From: an uncultured Alphaproteobacteria bacterium
GTDB lineage: Bacteria > Pseudomonadota > Alphaproteobacteria > Rs-D84
DNA: 32,000 nt
Direction of reading: 5' to 3'
Assembly (NCBI GenBank): GCA_963931495.1
Contig: OZ007020.1
Coordinates: 720,001 to 752,000, forward strand
Position numbers and translations under genes: made by a program. The number at the start of each line of letters is the position of its first letter. Within the stretch, counting starts at the first letter, position 1. Below, one piece after another: positions 18,056-28,103 of the stretch. The notes under the pieces were generated by a model. The model saw nothing but the letters and a program-made list of their open reading frames with translations, had not been told where the DNA came from and did no database searches.

Positions 18056-18469
18056 TTACCCGATAATATTATTAAAGAACTTTTCCCAATATACCGAATA
18101 TCCGCACCTTTTCTCGCATTCTTCTGCGCATTCGTCACCAGAGTATGAACCGTTCCAAACCCATTTACTTTCAAAAGGACTTAATACTTTACAGTAGCAG
18201 CTGTTGTTCATATCGCCATTCGTATCAACATTCAAACTTTCTGTTACATCAAACATATACCTTGCGCACGCAGAAATCCCGGTTATAACCAACGAATTGC
18301 CCCCAGATGAACACCGACGCGACCACATATTGTCGCCATCATCAGTATTCAGGATGAATAGGCAGTTATTGGGCCGAAGCACACATTTTACAACGGCGTT
18401 GGCCGGCGCGATGTGGACAATGGCGCATAACGCCCCAATCATTCCAAATCGGATTAAATTATTTTTCAT
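18056..18469 (-). CDS. Secreted cysteine-rich protein (137 aa)
   Basis: Signal peptide MKNNLIRFGMIGALCAIVHIAPANA, with a GGGAG Shine-Dalgarno and many Cys residues. First gene after leader copy L1. Confidence 0.65.
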   Translation of the reverse strand: MKNNLIRFGMIGALCAIVHIAPANAVVKCVLRPNNCLFILNTDDGDNMWSRRCSSGGNSLVITGISACARYMFDVTESLNVDTNGDMNNSCYCKVLSPFESKWVWNGSYSGDECAEECEKRCGYSVYWEKFFNNIIG

Positions 18470-18499
18470 TTTTCTTACTCCCTGTGTTTTTGGTTAAAC

Positions 18500-18720
18500 A
18501 AAAAACCACCAATCTGTTGGTGGTCGGGATGTTAGAAAAATCATATACCTTGATGATCCTGTGGCTTTTAAGGACGCATGCCCTTTGTTGCATGAACCAC
18601 AGCATCCCGACCAGACGTCGGGACACGACACAATATGTGTCATAACGTTAACGATGTGTTTCACACACCGAAGGTATAAGGGATTTTCTAAGTCCCGAAC
18701 CCACAAACCATGCGGATTCA
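18500..18720 (-). promoter_or_regulatory. Structured 5' leader RNA copy L1 ending in an intrinsic terminator (candidate riboswitch/attenuator)
   Basis: Paralogous to 23395-23618 and 26990-27205. GAAA-loop hairpin at 18680-18696 and CATCGTTA at 18649-18656. The proximal arm (18617-18622) and the distal arm (18523-18531) both pair with the middle segment (18603-18611). Terminator CCACC/GGTGG plus T6 (A-run 18500-18505 on plus). Confidence 0.6.
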
Positions 18721-21960: not shown

Positions 21961-22037
21961 GCGCCCATGGCTCAATTGGATAGAGCATCTGACTACGGAT
22001 CAGAAGGTTGAGGGTTCGAATCCTTCTGGGCGCGCCA
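21961..22037 (+). tRNA. tRNA-Arg (anticodon ACG), CCA encoded
   Basis: Hand-folded: acceptor GCGCCCA/TGGGCGC, D arm GCTC/GAGC, anticodon arm TCTGA-CTACGGA-TCAGA, T arm GAGGG-TTCGAAT-CCTTC, then G-CCA. Confidence 0.92.
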
Positions 22038-22062
22038 GGAATTTAACCGCCAGAAACGGCGG
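22028..22062 (+). repeat. attL-like direct repeat (3' end of tRNA-Arg plus its terminator stem)
   Basis: The 35-nt GGGCGCGCCAGGAATTTAACCGCCAGAAACGGCGG is identical to 23279-23313. Confidence 0.7.
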
Positions 22063-22072
22063 TTTAATTTTT
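22045..22072 (+). terminator. Terminator after tRNA-Arg (duplicated at 23296-23325)
   Basis: Stem AACCGCC / GGCGGTT with a 6-nt loop, followed by a T-rich run. Confidence 0.6.
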
Positions 22073-22268
22073 GTGCAAGCCCCAGGATTTGAACCCGAAC
22101 AGAGGGGGCGACAACAAGTAGATTTACCAAACGACAGTGCCGGCAAATCGTCACGATTGCCACGCCACCGACAAAGGCAAAATTGACGAATATATGATGA
22201 ACTGGGCGCGGTATGCAAAATAGATTGCTATTTGGTCTTGTTTGTTGTTAGATTTTATACAGGTGTCC

Positions 22269-22295
22269 GCCCCCGATAAACTGGGGGGCTTTTTT
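22269..22295 (+). terminator. Rho-independent terminator inside the islet
   Basis: Stem GCCCCC (22269-22274) / GGGGGC (22284-22289) plus T6 (22290-22295). The transcript it ends is unidentified. Confidence 0.5.
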
Positions 22296-22297
22296 AT

Positions 22298-22347
22298 TGT
22301 GCAAATTTTGTGCAAAAAATGTGCAAAATTGTGTCAAATTGTGCAAA
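22298..22347 (+). repeat. Five helically phased TGTGCAAA (iteron-like) repeats
   Basis: Copies start at 22298, 22309, 22320, 22330 (variant TGTGTCAAA) and 22340, a spacing of 10-11 bp. A very A-rich stretch follows. Confidence 0.75.
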
Positions 22348-22503
22348 AATATGACATAAAACGCAAAAAAATATCAAAAAAGACAAAAAACTTGACTTAT
22401 AAGTATATAATATGATATACTCTTTTTCAGAGAAAGAGGATATATCCTGCGTTAAGCGTTTTTGCGCAGCCTTTAAGGTGTTCGTATGGTGATTGCCTCT
22501 TTT

Positions 22504-23133
22504 TTATATTTTACAAGTAATAAATCCTAGATTTCTGCCGTCTGTAAAAACTTCGTTGAAACGATCTATTTTCTTGATTTGGTTTAATACTGGGTTAGCC
22601 CCAAGTTCGCGTATCATGCGAAATATCATATTATGTATTTTATGGCATGGCATTTGATGTCTTGAGCATATCAGCAATGACCCGTTATGCGAAAAACGAT
22701 TACGATATTTACGAATTGTATCTATTTCGCGTGAAATTTTTAATAAAGAAACATGGGCTTTCCGATGACTAAATATCTCTTGCAGAGCAGTTGGATATTT
22801 GTCCCAAATAGTTTCGCAATTTTGTGACATAAACAATTTGCTCCAAAAACCGAATGTTAAGCTATCTATTAATTTATTTCTGTCTGTAATATCTTTTTCG
22901 TCATTTAATTTGTCATCTGCACGAACAAAGTCAAAAATCCAATTTTCACCAATATGACGCGATAAAACAGCGTCTATTTTATTGCGTAGAACTATTTCAA
23001 ACTGACTTAAACTTGGATACATGCTTTCGCATAAGCGCACATTAAAAAAATATAACTGATGTGTGTGTGGTTTGTCAGGCGCACCATATTTAGACAAACG
23101 TTGTTCAGACATAAATGGTATTATTGTATCCAT
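22504..23133 (-). CDS. Abi_2 (AbiD/AbiF-like) abortive-infection family protein, HEPN-type
   Basis: 209 aa. YFFNVRLCESMYPSLSQFEIVLRNKI, LTFGFWSKLF and IRKYRNRFSHNGSL (Rx4H HEPN motif) match my recollection of the Abi_2 family. Confidence 0.7.
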   Translation of the reverse strand: MDTIIPFMSEQRLSKYGAPDKPHTHQLYFFNVRLCESMYPSLSQFEIVLRNKIDAVLSRHIGENWIFDFVRADDKLNDEKDITDRNKLIDSLTFGFWSKLFMSQNCETIWDKYPTALQEIFSHRKAHVSLLKISREIDTIRKYRNRFSHNGSLLICSRHQMPCHKIHNMIFRMIRELGANPVLNQIKKIDRFNEVFTDGRNLGFITCKI

Positions 23134-23278
23134 TGTAAAAACCCCATGTATTTTTTATTATACGGTTTTAATCCTGAAATGCAAATAAGTTTTAAGCCGC
23201 TTTTTGCAAACCAAAATTCCAATTTGCCGCCAATTTCTGCACTTCTGACCGGTATTTAGTTCGGAAATCGTCTACTGG

Positions 23279-23313
23279 GGGCGCGCCAGGAATTTAACCG
23301 CCAGAAACGGCGG
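23279..23313 (+). repeat. attR-like direct repeat
   Basis: Identical 35-nt copy of 22028-22062. Confidence 0.7.
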
Positions 23314-23394
23314 GTTATTTTTTGTTCGTGCACATCATTTCAACATCTTTAATCAAATAAAGTTCTTTTTTTTCAATAAGATTATATACGAACC

Positions 23395-23618
23395 ATCCGG
23401 GATGCTGGTTCGGGGCCGTAGAAAGCCCAGTTTATCCGGTGCAAAAGCATCGTTATACATTTGTGGATATTTCGGTGTCTTTTGCACCGTGTTGTCCCCG
23501 ACCTGGGTCGGGGGGCCGTTCGCAATACAACAGGACCATCGGTCCAAAGGCAACGGGAATCAATGATAAACTGATTTTTCTAACCCCCCGACCACCATGC
23601 GCTGACATGGTGTTTTTT
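23395..23618 (+). promoter_or_regulatory. Structured 5' leader RNA copy L2 ending in an intrinsic terminator (candidate riboswitch/attenuator)
   Basis: 5' hairpin GAACCA/TGGTTC. GAAA-loop hairpin at 23413-23428. CATCGTTA at 23448-23455. 10-bp hairpin 23438-23447/23479-23488. Proximal arm CCCCGAC (23496-23502), middle GTCGGGGGG (23507-23515), distal CCCCCCGAC (23584-23592). Terminator CACCATG/CATGGTG plus T6 (23593-23618). Confidence 0.6.
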
Positions 23619-23643
23619 ACATAAATCTGTACGGGGGGCAAAT

Positions 23644-24423
23644 ATGAAAATAATTACTGTTGCGATTATACTTGCTGTGGTTGCGATTGACGCAAATGCA
23701 GCATGGGGACCCAAATATGGTTCCGAAGACAGCTGTATCGTGGAACGCAAAAATGGGCGAAAATTCTATTTCTGTGGTCAATCACAAAGTGAATGCGCGG
23801 GATACAAAGTACTAAAATGGTCAACACAAAAAGCATTTCAAAATGAAAAAAGTTTTACATCAGAATTTGATTCATCACGAACATTTTACTGCTGTAACCC
23901 AGACGGTGGGGCACGTGGCGTTTGGAAAGAAGGAAAATCGTGGTATGTAACAAACGAAGTTGCAACCAAACAACTGGAAAATGGAACATGCAATTATCAC
24001 CGACGCATCAACATATGTGGGGGTGACGAAAGTACAGACTGTACCGTCCCAGATACATGCACAAATGGAACATTTATGCGCAATGACGAATGTGTTACAA
24101 ACTGTCCCGACGGCAGTGTTTTTGAAAGTGAAACATCAAATGTTTGTATAACATGCGAAACCACCGAATTCCAGGGCATTAATAAAGATCAAGAATGTGT
24201 GCAATGCGATCCGGACACAGAATTTTTTGATTTGGAAACCAAAACCTGTGTCGCCAAAGCAGAACTGACACATATTACCAAAGAAATGATGATGCAATGT
24301 CACAAATGCCCAAACAGCGTTTTATTTTATGACTGTTGCAAAATGTTAAGCATGTCTGAATCAGAACGCACCAACATGGAAAATTACGAACAAATAGTAA
24401 ATGATTGCCAGATACGGCAATAA
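23644..24423 (+). CDS. Secreted cysteine-rich protein with furin/EGF-like CxxC repeats (259 aa)
   Basis: Signal peptide MKIITVAIILAVVAIDANA and a GGGGGG Shine-Dalgarno. Repeated Cys spacing: CTVPDTCTNGTF..ECVTNCPDGS..CITCETTEF..ECVQCDPDTEF..TCV. Confidence 0.7.
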   Translation: MKIITVAIILAVVAIDANAAWGPKYGSEDSCIVERKNGRKFYFCGQSQSECAGYKVLKWSTQKAFQNEKSFTSEFDSSRTFYCCNPDGGARGVWKEGKSWYVTNEVATKQLENGTCNYHRRINICGGDESTDCTVPDTCTNGTFMRNDECVTNCPDGSVFESETSNVCITCETTEFQGINKDQECVQCDPDTEFFDLETKTCVAKAELTHITKEMMMQCHKCPNSVLFYDCCKMLSMSESERTNMENYEQIVNDCQIRQ

Positions 24424-24450
24424 AGAATCGCCCGTTTGGGCGATTTTTTA
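24424..24450. terminator. Bidirectional terminator
   Basis: Stem AATCGCCC (24426-24433) / GGGCGATT (24438-24445) plus a T-run. Sits between convergent genes. Confidence 0.65.
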
Positions 24451-24828
24451 TTCTGAAAATCCCATTGCTTTTAGATATGCTTTTTCTTTTTCATAAACAA
24501 TATCACATGTTGTTAATTCGCTGGCTGGGATATATCTGGAATCAGAAACGTTCAACAGACCCAATGAATCAACAACAGAAACACGGCATGCGGTCACGAC
24601 GGGTTCCATGGCATTTTCATCCCAAACTTCGGTCACAGTTAACAGTGCGCGATCAAAGTTTTTAACGTGGCATCCCGGGCATACCTTTTCATTGTCCATG
24701 CATCCACCGGTTGTTTCGTATCCATCCAATGTTCCATTGGCGTACATGTTCGCAATGTATTGTTTCGGTCCGACCATTTGGCACGCCGTTAACAATAACA
24801 CGCCACATAATATTGCAATTTTTTTCAT
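24448..24828 (-). CDS. Hypothetical lipoprotein (126 aa)
   Basis: Signal peptide with lipobox (LLLTAC) and several Cys residues, including CPGC. Confidence 0.55.
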   Translation of the reverse strand: MKKIAILCGVLLLTACQMVGPKQYIANMYANGTLDGYETTGGCMDNEKVCPGCHVKNFDRALLTVTEVWDENAMEPVVTACRVSVVDSLGLLNVSDSRYIPASELTTCDIVYEKEKAYLKAMGFSE

Positions 24829-26953: not shown

Positions 26954-26982
26954 TTGTTTTTAATATTCACGCGGTATGTAAT
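26954..26982 (+). promoter_or_regulatory. Putative sigma70 promoter for leader L3
   Basis: TTGTTT (26954-26959) -N17- TGTAAT (26977-26982). Confidence 0.3.
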
Positions 26983-26989
26983 CCAATTG

Positions 26990-27205
26990 TTAATGGGTGT
27001 TCCATTAATGGGGCGTGGAAACCTCTGCACATGCGTCGGGATACATACCTGTGGCGCGCAACATGCGCCCATTTTAGCGTTGTGTTACGACGATAAAAAA
27101 CTCCTGGCCTTATTTGGTCAGGAGGGTTGTAGAATATCAAATACACAACGCAATTCATGTGATTGTTTCCAACCTCCTGACCACCATAAAAACTGGTGGT
27201 TTTTT
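26990..27205 (+). promoter_or_regulatory. Structured 5' leader RNA copy L3 ending in an intrinsic terminator (candidate riboswitch/attenuator)
   Basis: 5' hairpin ATGG/CCAT. GAAA-loop hairpin at 27010-27025. Proximal arm CTCCTGGCC (27101-27109), middle GGTCAGGAGG (27116-27125), distal CCTCCTGACC (27173-27182). Terminator ACCACC/GGTGGT plus a T-run (27180-27205). Confidence 0.55.
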
Positions 27206-27232
27206 CGTTGTAAAAAAAGTGGGAGTTGGACT

Positions 27233-27619
27233 ATGAAACATAGTATATTTTCTGTTATTGGCGTGGTATCAGTAATTATGTTGCCGTACACGGCATTTGC
27301 CGTCAGTGGTAGCGGTGGCAATATTGATTGGGACGGGGTTGACCATTGCATATCTGGGTGCATAAATTGTTCAGTATACGAAACGGCGTCGTGTTGCATT
27401 GTGTGCAACGATAGCAGTGCGGGCGGCGGTGGTGGAAGCGGATATGCATGCACGTCATATGCCCAATGCCCCAGTATATCCGAACGAATCCTGTATACAG
27501 ACATTGGTTCGGCGGCATCAGTTGGTGATGCAGGGATGGCATCATCAAACAATATATGCTTTGACATAAATGGCATTCAATACTATAAAAAATCGGCTGT
27601 GTCATGCCGTACGGCATGA
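27233..27619 (+). CDS. Secreted cysteine-rich protein (128 aa as written; probably the N-terminal part of a frameshifted longer gene)
   Basis: Start re-picked at MKHSIFSVIGVVSVIMLPYTAFA (signal peptide), with a GGGAG Shine-Dalgarno. CISGCINC..CCIVCND CxxC motifs. The in-frame upstream part of track ORF 26954..27619 covers the leader and terminator and is rejected. Confidence 0.6.
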   Translation: MKHSIFSVIGVVSVIMLPYTAFAVSGSGGNIDWDGVDHCISGCINCSVYETASCCIVCNDSSAGGGGGSGYACTSYAQCPSISERILYTDIGSAASVGDAGMASSNNICFDINGIQYYKKSAVSCRTA

Positions 27620-28103
27620 CACAAAGGTAAAATATACAATACATGGGTGCAGTGACATCGTATTTTACGAATGCCTGTATAACCGAACCACACCATCCAC
27701 CGGTAATTGCGATGAATCAACATGCGTGCCCGATGCATGGGAATTGATAACAAACGGTTCAACCAAGGCTGTCCAGGCCAGAACCCATCGTGGTTGCAAT
27801 AATGCGGGTCAATGTGTGGAAACACTAAACCGCCAGGTACGCTGTCCCACAGGATATTGGGGATTACCAAATATAAACTTTTCCGACGCAATTACCGCAT
27901 GGTGCGAAAAATGCCCATCCCATGCATCGGGCACGCAAACAACATCCGGTCCGGGCGATATTGCCTCAGGCGGACAGGTTGTTGGCGGCGGAACAGCGGT
28001 GGGTACCGTTCCAATCACAGAATGTTTTGTGCCCGCCGGCAATGGTGATTCTGACGAGTCTGGCACATACGTATGGACACAAAATTGTTACTATGCAAAT
28101 TAA
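27570..28103 (+). CDS. Cysteine-rich protein lacking its own signal peptide (CPTGY / GTYV module); likely the +1-frame continuation of 27233..27619
   Basis: RCPTGYWG, CEKCP and ECFVPAG..DESGTYVWTQNCYY are homologous to the C-terminus of ORF 17751..18038. It overlaps the upstream ORF in the region of an A6 run (27587-27592). Confidence 0.5.
   Translation: MAFNTIKNRLCHAVRHDTKVKYTIHGCSDIVFYECLYNRTTPSTGNCDESTCVPDAWELITNGSTKAVQARTHRGCNNAGQCVETLNRQVRCPTGYWGLPNINFSDAITAWCEKCPSHASGTQTTSGPGDIASGGQVVGGGTAVGTVPITECFVPAGNGDSDESGTYVWTQNCYYAN

Follow-up and report, generated by a model that had tools for sequence, protein, structure and literature searches.

The window analysed here, 32,000 nt of an uncultured alphaproteobacterium of the order Rs-D84 (contig OZ007020.1, positions 720,001 to 752,000, forward strand), holds at 23644..24423 (+) an open reading frame (ORF) that begins with ATG and encodes 259 aa, exactly as the original prediction quoted it. 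We consider it probable that its product is a Sec-exported, disulfide-locked binding protein of three modules, which belongs to an unnamed family of gut Alphaproteobacteria and is gated by a structured leader RNA. Two sets of observations carry this reading: the ORF, its signal-peptide features, the conservation and paired loss of its cysteines, and its family and synteny; and the structure, covariation and terminator of the leader, together with its association with cysteine-rich exported genes.

According to this model a mature protein of ~240 aa, exported by Sec and cut after Ala19, would be locked by 20 conserved cysteines into about ten disulfides. It would consist of a β-rich N-terminal domain, a rod of four β-hairpin ‘finger’ modules (C-x2-3-C-x13), each with its loop closed by a disulfide such as C171-C185, and a small, disulfide-stapled helical C-terminal domain. 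It would likely act outside the cytoplasm as a rigid binding protein, whether in the envelope, at the surface or released, and it would bind a partner cell, a host surface or a polymer through the conserved face of hairpin modules 2-3 (RNGxCV..FESxxSNxCIxCxTTxxQGI). Read-through of the leader's intrinsic terminator would be the sole route of transcription into the ORF and, as one leader stands before at least three other unrelated cysteine-rich families, the RNA would define a regulon switched by some signal.

The exported protein family and its predicted fold

The gene and the parts of its product are as follows.

23633..23638 (+): ribosome-binding site (RBS) GGGGGG, 5 nt before the ATG, read from the sequence
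23644..23700 (+): signal peptide, aa 1-19 (MKIITVAIILAVVAIDANA), with a predicted signal peptidase I (SPase I) cut after Ala19, immediately before 23701
23701..24015 (+): N-terminal β-rich domain, aa 20-124, with conserved Cys 31, 44, 51, 83, 84 and 116
24016..24255 (+): central cysteine-repeat region, aa 125-204, four β-hairpin modules and the best-conserved part, with Cys 125, 133, 139, 150, 154, 168, 171, 185, 188 and 202
24256..24423 (+, stop codon included): C-terminal helical domain, aa 205-259, with Cys 219, 222, 231 and 255 and the non-conserved Cys232

A search with word-indexed proteins recovered six close clusters only, whereas a profile search of 1.84 billion representatives gave 162 clusters at E<=1e-3 and 138 at E<=1e-10. 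Most of the family proteins among the matches listed are 250-300 aa long and align over nearly their full length; no eukaryotic relatives are among these matches, and nothing in them points to a recent eukaryotic origin. The family alignment used throughout comprises 76 sequences with 24-59% identity to the window protein. Its sole named member is annotated as a ‘hypothetical protein’ in Candidatus Enterousia excrementavium, no source gives a functional name, and the two species-representative genomes that encode the family are metagenome-assembled genomes labelled ‘uncultured Alphaproteobacteria’. Candidatus Enterousia belongs to the order Rs-D84 and is described as having genomes of <1 Mb, as purely fermentative and as possibly dependent on partner cells (PMC12306168). 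As far as sampled, the family is confined to such Rs-D84/Candidatus Enterousia-like gut Alphaproteobacteria with reduced genomes, in keeping with the original prediction of a reduced, possibly host-associated bacterium. Twenty longer family members were inspected for domain fusions and contain no informative Pfam domain.

The position of the gene is conserved as well. The order autotransporter (-), HtpX (+), thymidine kinase (+), tRNA-Arg(ACG), family gene (+), further genes, M23 peptidase (-) and PrmC (+) is found in the window and at two loci of relatives, L029 and L032 (labels of this form denote loci of relatives or leader copies that were compared with the window), and is partly kept in L034. 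The family proteins of L029 and L032 are at most 39% identical to the window protein. A position held constant in very small genomes indicates a vertically inherited orthologue and not a mobile cassette; an origin from a phage or plasmid was also considered and rejected, as tblastn found no phage or plasmid relatives of the protein.

In the N-terminus, MKIITVAIILAVVAIDANA followed by AWGPK, the n-region contains a single Lys, the hydrophobic stretch is a 10-mer whose mean Kyte-Doolittle value is 3.5, and A-N-A stands at positions -3/-1. A heuristic scan for n-, h- and c-regions detected signal-peptide features in 72 of the 76 family members. The A-x-A motif is kept in the family, with Ala19 (position -1) conserved in 84% of the alignment, and a lipobox occurs in just one member. 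The family thus displays the basic n-region, the hydrophobic h-region and the small -3/-1 residues, without a lipobox, of Sec/SPase I substrates, and the conservation of these features strengthens what is otherwise a heuristic call. In the AlphaFold2 model (see below) the signal peptide is a separate helix, residues 2-13. The cleavable signal peptide that had been proposed from the ending ..AIDANA is therefore supported by sequence as one of the Sec type.

Cysteine makes up 8.1% of the protein (21 residues), against 0-2.6% in the housekeeping proteins of the window. The string of regularly spaced pairs to which the original prediction drew attention, DCTVPDTCTNGTF..ECVTNCPDGSVF..CITCETTEF..ECVQCDPDTEF..TCV, is present and periodic (C150-x3-C154-x13-C168-x2-C171-x13-C185-x2-C188-x13-C202, or C-x2-3-C-x13), and its positions are conserved among the homologues. 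Across the alignment 20 Cys positions are conserved in at least 93% of sequences. The total is odd in the window protein because of a non-conserved extra, Cys232, which stands beside the conserved Cys231 (24334-24339, aa 231-232) in this protein alone among the 76.

Five members lack both C171 and C185 (replaced by S/N, I/V, F/L, I/V and I/I) but retain C168 and C188, and no member lacks just one of C171 and C185; C222 and C255 are jointly lost in one member. Such paired losses fit loop-closing disulfides (C-x13-C) and not four-cysteine metal sites, and the even number of conserved cysteines (20) likewise favours disulfides over metal. The alignment indicates that C171-C185 is a loop-closing disulfide and that C222-C255 is probably a second pair; we presume that the remaining conserved cysteines are paired too. 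Cysteines apart, the repeat region has the highest information content of the alignment, with a peak at aa 160-174 (motif FESxxSNxCIxCxTT). Being the best-conserved part in this sense, it would not be a mere spacer, and of all parts it is the most likely functional surface.

AlphaFold2 gave a poor model from four sequences (mean predicted local distance difference test, pLDDT, 66.6), which was superseded by a run with 76 sequences (pLDDT 94.5, predicted template-modelling score 0.69); the structure prediction that had been proposed as a check is thus a confident one. The N-domain (aa ~28-124) is modelled as eight β-strands with pLDDT >90, and its cysteines are (nearly) invariant. Hairpins at residues 143-152, 177-187 and 193-204 are in register with the cysteine repeat, and the C-domain (aa ~210-254) is formed by four helices with pLDDT ~95. 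This three-part fold is a confident prediction, not a solved structure.

Comparison with known proteins gave consistent but sub-threshold similarity to one kind of domain. Foldseek searches of the model against the PDB (best E 0.14) and BFVD (best E 0.03) returned nothing at E<=1e-3, and the PDB sequences gave no match to the family profile at E<=10. The meaningful matches that rank highest in Foldseek are to the Cys-rich regions of the insulin receptor (IR) and IGF1R, R-spondin Fu1-Fu2, EGFR and TNFR1, all with probability <=0.35 and E>=0.16; the mGlu Cys-rich domain also recurs among the weak PDB matches. With the whole chain as query, IGF1R (1igr) was matched with E 0.16 and probability 0.30 and IR (3w11) with E 0.53 and probability 0.35 over 90 columns, and the values for RSPO2, EGFR and TNFR1 were lower than these. 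The N-domain has no Pfam, PDB or Foldseek match. A kringle-like N-domain, suggested by a phmmer match to prothrombin (E=0.11) and by the likeness of FYCCNPDG to NYCRNPD, was rejected, because the profile search of PDB sequences is empty and no kringle is among the Foldseek matches.

The window protein itself matches no Pfam family at E<=1 and nothing in NCBIfam. Among the 76 members, weak Pfam matches were obtained for Ephrin_rec_like (4/76, best E 1.1e-3) and for Furin-like_2, GF_recep_IV and NCD3G (1/76 each; E about 6-8e-3 for the first two of these). All of these sub-threshold matches belong to one clan, the growth-factor-receptor Cys-rich clan; the furin-like, growth-factor-receptor and Ephrin_rec_like matches map to the central repeat region. 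The best single match, to Furin-like_2, scores 21.3 bits and stays below the gathering score of 28.

The furin-like resemblance claimed in the original prediction therefore holds for the architecture of hairpins and cysteines and fails at the Pfam thresholds. Furin-like and growth-factor-receptor repeats are extracellular tandem modules in which C-x2-3-C alternates with disulfide-tied hairpin loops of ~13 residues, and they share with the window protein the local motif C-x3-C-P-x-G-x-x-F...C-x2-C; the predicted tandem β-hairpins have the C-x2-3-C...C spacing of such repeats. However, in addition to the sub-threshold scores and Foldseek values (E>=0.16, TM<=0.15), our protein has only about four modules, flanked by N- and C-domains that have no known counterpart, and its family is bacterial and lineage-restricted, with no eukaryotic homologue among the profile-search matches. 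The comparison with Ephrin_rec_like (formerly GCC2_GCC3, PF07699), a Cys-rich extracellular repeat of protist and metazoan surface proteins, is similar: C-x2-C and P-x-G motifs are common to both, but the family stays below the gathering score of 23.1 bits. Because the build is similar and every membership threshold is failed, the central region would be an analogue or a very distant relative of furin-like repeats; it may work like them and is not counted as a member.

Two other suggested resemblances were not borne out. No EGF family was matched in the Pfam scans of the protein or of the 76 members, and the Foldseek match to the EGF domain of factor IX has a probability of 0.12. A likeness to variant-specific surface proteins (VSP) or other CxxC antigens of protists finds no VSP match either, and the C-terminus is modelled as soluble and helical, without a hydrophobic anchor.

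The leader RNA and the genes behind it

Upstream of the ORF lies a leader of ~230 nt (23390-23618, +). Its parts, and the two further copies in the window, are listed here.

23370..23389 (+): AT-rich promoter-like stretch, with a TATAcT-like -10 box in most copies
23390..23505 (+): 5′ domain, with hairpins P1 and P2 and two further hairpins
23391-23411 (+): hairpin P1
23413-23416 / 23425-23428 (+): hairpin P2, GGGC paired with GCCC, loop with UAGAAA
23506..23601 (+): 3′ domain related to sRNA-Xcc1, a closing stem enclosing two or three hairpins
23506-23515 / 23584-23593 (+): closing stem, GGUCGGGGGG / CCCCCCGACC
23573-23584 (+): invariant core, GAUUUUUCUAAC
23593..23618 (+): intrinsic terminator, CACCAUG-CGCUGA-CAUGGUG then U6, 25 nt before the ATG, from a terminator scan
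18493..18705 (-): second leader copy, upstream of the gene 18056..18469 (-); nhmmer E=5.6e-44
27011..27214 (+): third, divergent leader copy, before a Cys-rich signal-peptide gene from 27233; nhmmer E=2.1e-9

Besides the three copies in the window the leader is kept in ~17 distinct metagenomic copies (nhmmer E 1e-37 to 1e-53), and a metagenome scan for the invariant core found 20 loci. The full leader folds with z = -4.2 relative to shuffles. P1 and P2 arms covary between copies. In 17 copies the four-helix structure of the 3′ domain has 94.8% of its cells paired, and 14 of the 26 pairs show compensatory changes; these values were not attained by any of 500 shuffles, and slid controls have at most 52% of cells paired. 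The closing stem of the third copy covaries (GGUCAGGAGG / CCUCCUGACC).

The terminator stem CCACCA/UGGUGG and its U-run are kept in all copies, with variable loops, and a purine-rich RBS follows at equal spacing after nearly all of them. With the terminator only 25 nt ahead of the ATG, RNA polymerase has to read through it to reach the ORF. The 20 aligned leader copies show a TTATACT/TATATA box 7-10 nt before the first conserved bases; the promoter at 23370..23389 is a putative one, as a consensus scan detected no -35/-10 pair in this stretch. A conserved, covarying structure in the 5′ untranslated region, with a terminator before the ORF, is the layout of a riboswitch or attenuator-type leader. 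A leader-peptide mechanism (Cys-codon attenuator) was considered and rejected, since no ORF is conserved across the copies. The loop UAGAAA (23419-23424; UUAGAAAA in most copies) is complementary to the invariant strand UUUCUA (23577-23582; UUUUCUAA) beside the closing stem. This pairing could be a pseudoknot, an alternative pairing or a switch; it lies beyond a covariation test because both segments are invariant in all copies.

At gathering thresholds an Rfam scan of the window reports two tRNAs only; no Rfam riboswitch family matches the leader, and its 5′ domain has no Rfam match. The nearest known RNA is sRNA-Xcc1 (RF02221), an 88-nt small RNA borne on integrons, transposons and plasmids of Xanthomonas and other Proteobacteria. 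cmscan aligns RF02221 over its full model length to 23506-23601 with 35.6 bits (E=1.4e-4) and, again at full length, to the copies at L018 and L013 with 37.3 and 49 bits, all below the gathering score of 53. Both RNAs have a long closing stem (GGUCGGG.../...CCCGACC) around hairpins, followed by a Rho-independent terminator, and both are placed directly upstream of a protein gene: sRNA-Xcc1 is directly upstream of symE in Xanthomonas integron cassettes (bioRxiv 10.1101/2025.06.18.660453) and upstream of an ORF6N-domain gene in APSE phages. Unlike sRNA-Xcc1, our leader carries an extra conserved 5′ domain of ~115 nt, is chromosomal in Rs-D84-like Alphaproteobacteria and stands before Cys-rich signal-peptide genes, not before symE or ORF6N genes. 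A full-text search for sRNA-Xcc1 yielded titles, abstracts and passages among which no comparable leader is described.

In Clostridia, c-di-GMP riboswitches precede adhesin and pilus genes. The arrangement found here is analogous to riboswitch- or attenuator-controlled surface genes in that a structured 5′ leader with a terminator just before the RBS would serve several unrelated exported proteins. It differs from known riboswitch leaders in that it matches no Rfam riboswitch family and that no expression platform with a clear alternative pairing was identified.

The genes behind the three leader copies of the window encode exactly its three most Cys-rich proteins. Of the 17 distinct copies in the window and the metagenomes that could be evaluated, 14 have an RBS and a gene within ~25 nt downstream, and the product of this gene combines a signal peptide with at least 10 Cys. 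BLASTP divides the leader-linked proteins into at least four families: that of the window protein; that of 18056..18469 (-), whose product has 137 aa, a signal peptide and 10 Cys; an Ephrin_rec_like-containing family, to which the third leader-linked gene of the window belongs; and a family of 120-148 aa. The original prediction had envisaged a co-regulated family of disulfide-rich exoproteins. Its regulatory half is upheld by the shared leader, and the sequence analysis strongly supports co-regulation; kinship is not found, and because the proteins form at least four unrelated families we speak of a regulon rather than of a protein family. Profile comparisons detect no homology of the family of the window protein either to that of 18056..18469 or to the Ephrin_rec_like-containing one. 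The weak resemblance of FYCCNPDGGARGVWKEGKSWY to SCYCKVLSPFESKWVWNGSYS in the 18056..18469 product on which kinship had been based could not be reproduced (BLASTP E=0.36, with a different segment aligned), and hhalign assigned paralogy of the two a probability of 3.4% with the signal peptides alone aligned. Homology to the Ephrin_rec_like-containing family was rejected likewise (hhalign probability 1.4%).

Several leader copies have surroundings of their own. A 1-nt frameshift in an A6 run (27587-27592) divides the gene at 27233 into two overlapping ORFs, 27233..27619 and 27570..28103; removal of one A yields a single protein of 289 aa with 21 Cys. The frameshift may reflect an error of the assembly, a pseudogene or phase variation by strand slippage. 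The long ORF that was predicted to begin at 26954 extends this gene spuriously upstream, across the third leader copy. The gene downstream of the copy at L010 (4949-5179, -) belongs, with genes in L020, L026 and L015, to a leader-linked family of 190-240 aa with 17-20 Cys and the ending ..CYY; the L010 member passes the Pfam gathering score for Ephrin_rec_like (GCC2_GCC3) with 24.3 versus 23.1 bits. Two exceptions were noted. At L024 (3-214) a full-length leader precedes a protein of 113 aa with one Cys and no signal peptide. At L012 (2659-2876), and equally in L017, L019, L021 and L027, the leader has no adjacent ORF, and a proline-rich repeat lies downstream in all frames.

Other features of the locus

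24426..24445 (both strands): bidirectional terminator hairpin, from a terminator scan and the sequence, common to the gene studied here and the convergent ORF
24448..24828 (-): convergent, lipoprotein-like ORF of 126 aa with lipobox LLTAC and 7 Cys (5.6%), without a Pfam or NCBIfam match and without a leader
21961-22037: tRNA-Arg in the window
L029 4770-4846, L032 4503-4579, L001 9327-9403, L005 5322-5398, L006 672-748 and L018 1356-1431: tRNA-Arg near the family genes of these loci

The window as a whole contains ordinary Gram-negative housekeeping and envelope genes. Family genes are repeatedly found just downstream of tRNA-Arg, with the anticodon TCT in some lineages and ACG in others; upstream of the family gene in L008 there is a remnant that resembles the tRNA-end repeat. 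In the window the 3′ end of tRNA-Arg(ACG), 21961-22037, together with the next hairpin (22028-22074), is repeated with 96% identity at 23279-23325. Within 21961-23325 the two tRNA-end copies flank an islet of 1.25 kb with a lone ORF, 22504..23133 (-), which is Abi_2/HEPN-like (Pfam Abi_2 E=6.6e-5, below the cut-off); the islet contains no integrase. The syntenic relatives L029 and L032 have the tRNA and lack the islet. In L033 (1-2995), a distant relative, the family gene begins 14 nt after a same-strand ORF that is at least 727 aa long and contains 28 Cys; the two may form an operon of Cys-rich proteins. The ORFs adjoining the family genes of L033 and L032 have no Pfam match.

Proposed role and alternatives

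The binding function, extracellular or in the envelope, that we ascribe to the protein is drawn from its architecture, because no characterised domain is matched significantly, and several observations weigh against it or against the control we propose. An SPase I signal peptide indicates export to the periplasm only, and neither a secretion system nor a surface anchor was identified for the protein. Independent support for disulfides is confined to C171-C185 and, probably, C222-C255; the lineage is described as strictly fermentative and devoid of respiratory chains (PMC12306168), which speaks against its oxidising about ten disulfides in each protein. The leader shows no evident terminator/antiterminator alternative. 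The closing stem and the terminator share just 1-3 nt, and attenuation is for this reason read from the layout: the leader may act in this way. The leader is also not universal. Whether homologues carry it had been posed as a check, and the answer is divided: full-length copies precede the distant members at L034 (E=8.7e-28), L018, L006 and L001 and a partial one, matching the 3′ domain, that at L031 (E=5.3e-07), whereas the leader is absent before the orthologues at L029, L030 and L032, which have identical synteny, and before those at L007 and L008. Leader control is thus not obligatory.

The main competitor, which we regard as unlikely, is a resident periplasmic or cell-envelope protein, either structural or a chaperone or scaffold for wall or outer membrane, in which the Cys repeats merely stabilize the fold and which is no exoprotein or adhesin. 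It would account for an SPase I signal peptide unaccompanied by a sorting signal, lipobox or autotransporter domain. The constant place of the gene among envelope genes, seen in several genera whose genomes are <1 Mb, suggests a core function; these neighbours are the autotransporter, HtpX and the M23 peptidase, and elsewhere BamD, MurJ and RlpA, and in L007 the family gene lies 80 nt after the M23 peptidase gene on the same strand. However, the neighbours are on other strands or in separate transcription units, no known envelope factor in Pfam or NCBIfam resembles the protein, and the leader is common to at least three further families of small, fast-evolving Cys-rich proteins, a pattern that is more like a variable exported repertoire than housekeeping.

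By analogy with the part that sRNA-Xcc1 may play before toxin genes such as symE, the leader-linked proteins might instead be secreted antagonistic effectors, bacteriocin- or toxin-like, that are deployed on a signal. The symE and ORF6N settings of sRNA-Xcc1 are compatible with this idea, as are the occurrence of several unrelated small disulfide-rich secreted proteins under one inducible leader and the splitting of one paralogous gene by a homopolymer frameshift. We nevertheless judge it very improbable: Pfam and NCBIfam scans revealed no toxin, bacteriocin or immunity domains, there is no conserved adjacent immunity-like gene, and the gene is a syntenic orthologue across genera, with no phage or plasmid homologues found, rather than a mobile cassette. 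Least probable of all is that the CxxC...CxxC pairs are zinc (or iron) knuckles and the central region a string of zinc ribbons, as one might expect of a strict anaerobe. C168-x2-C171-x13-C185-x2-C188 formally has zinc-ribbon spacing, and the lineage is reported to lack respiratory chains (PMC12306168), which usually re-oxidise DsbB. Against this reading stand the export signal of the protein, the joint loss of C171 and C185 in members that keep C168 and C188, which does not fit a four-cysteine metal site, and the weak Pfam and Foldseek neighbours, which are without exception disulfide domains (furin-like, GF_recep_IV, Ephrin_rec_like, TNFR), none of them a zinc ribbon.

We thus return to the exported, disulfide-locked binding protein under a structured leader. 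Its general kind, extracellular disulfide-stapled hairpin repeats, is already known. The family itself is uncharacterised and matches no known domain and no solved structure significantly. To judge by the libraries searched, what is new is the combination of novel flanking domains, ultra-small gut Alphaproteobacteria and an extended sRNA-Xcc1-like leader that is shared with other Cys-rich families. We offer a bolder version as a tentative proposal, more doubtful than probable: the leader would be a new riboswitch-like sensor, built from an sRNA-Xcc1 core and an aptamer-like 5′ domain, that induces an exported repertoire of eukaryote-type disulfide repeats for partner attachment or surface mimicry, and the window protein would be a new fold combination with modules 2-3 as its ligand face. 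If this is true, the repertoire, including this family and the genuine Ephrin_rec_like family, would be tools of metabolically dependent, ultra-small gut Alphaproteobacteria, with a partner that is either eukaryotic or bacterial.

For the leader, the finding provides a well-supported candidate for an orphan riboswitch or attenuator with a clear regulon, and it gives a testable cis-regulatory role to the sRNA-Xcc1 fold, so far treated as a trans-acting small RNA. It also prompts one to ask how disulfides are formed in such numbers by an obligate fermenter. Rs-D84/Candidatus Enterousia bacteria are widespread in animal and human guts and are thought to depend on partner cells; to our knowledge, none of their interactions has been characterised. 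An exported Cys-rich protein that is conserved, has a confidently predicted fold and is kept in a tiny genome is a concrete candidate for this partner interface, and so are the at least four unrelated Cys-rich exported families that stand under one leader.

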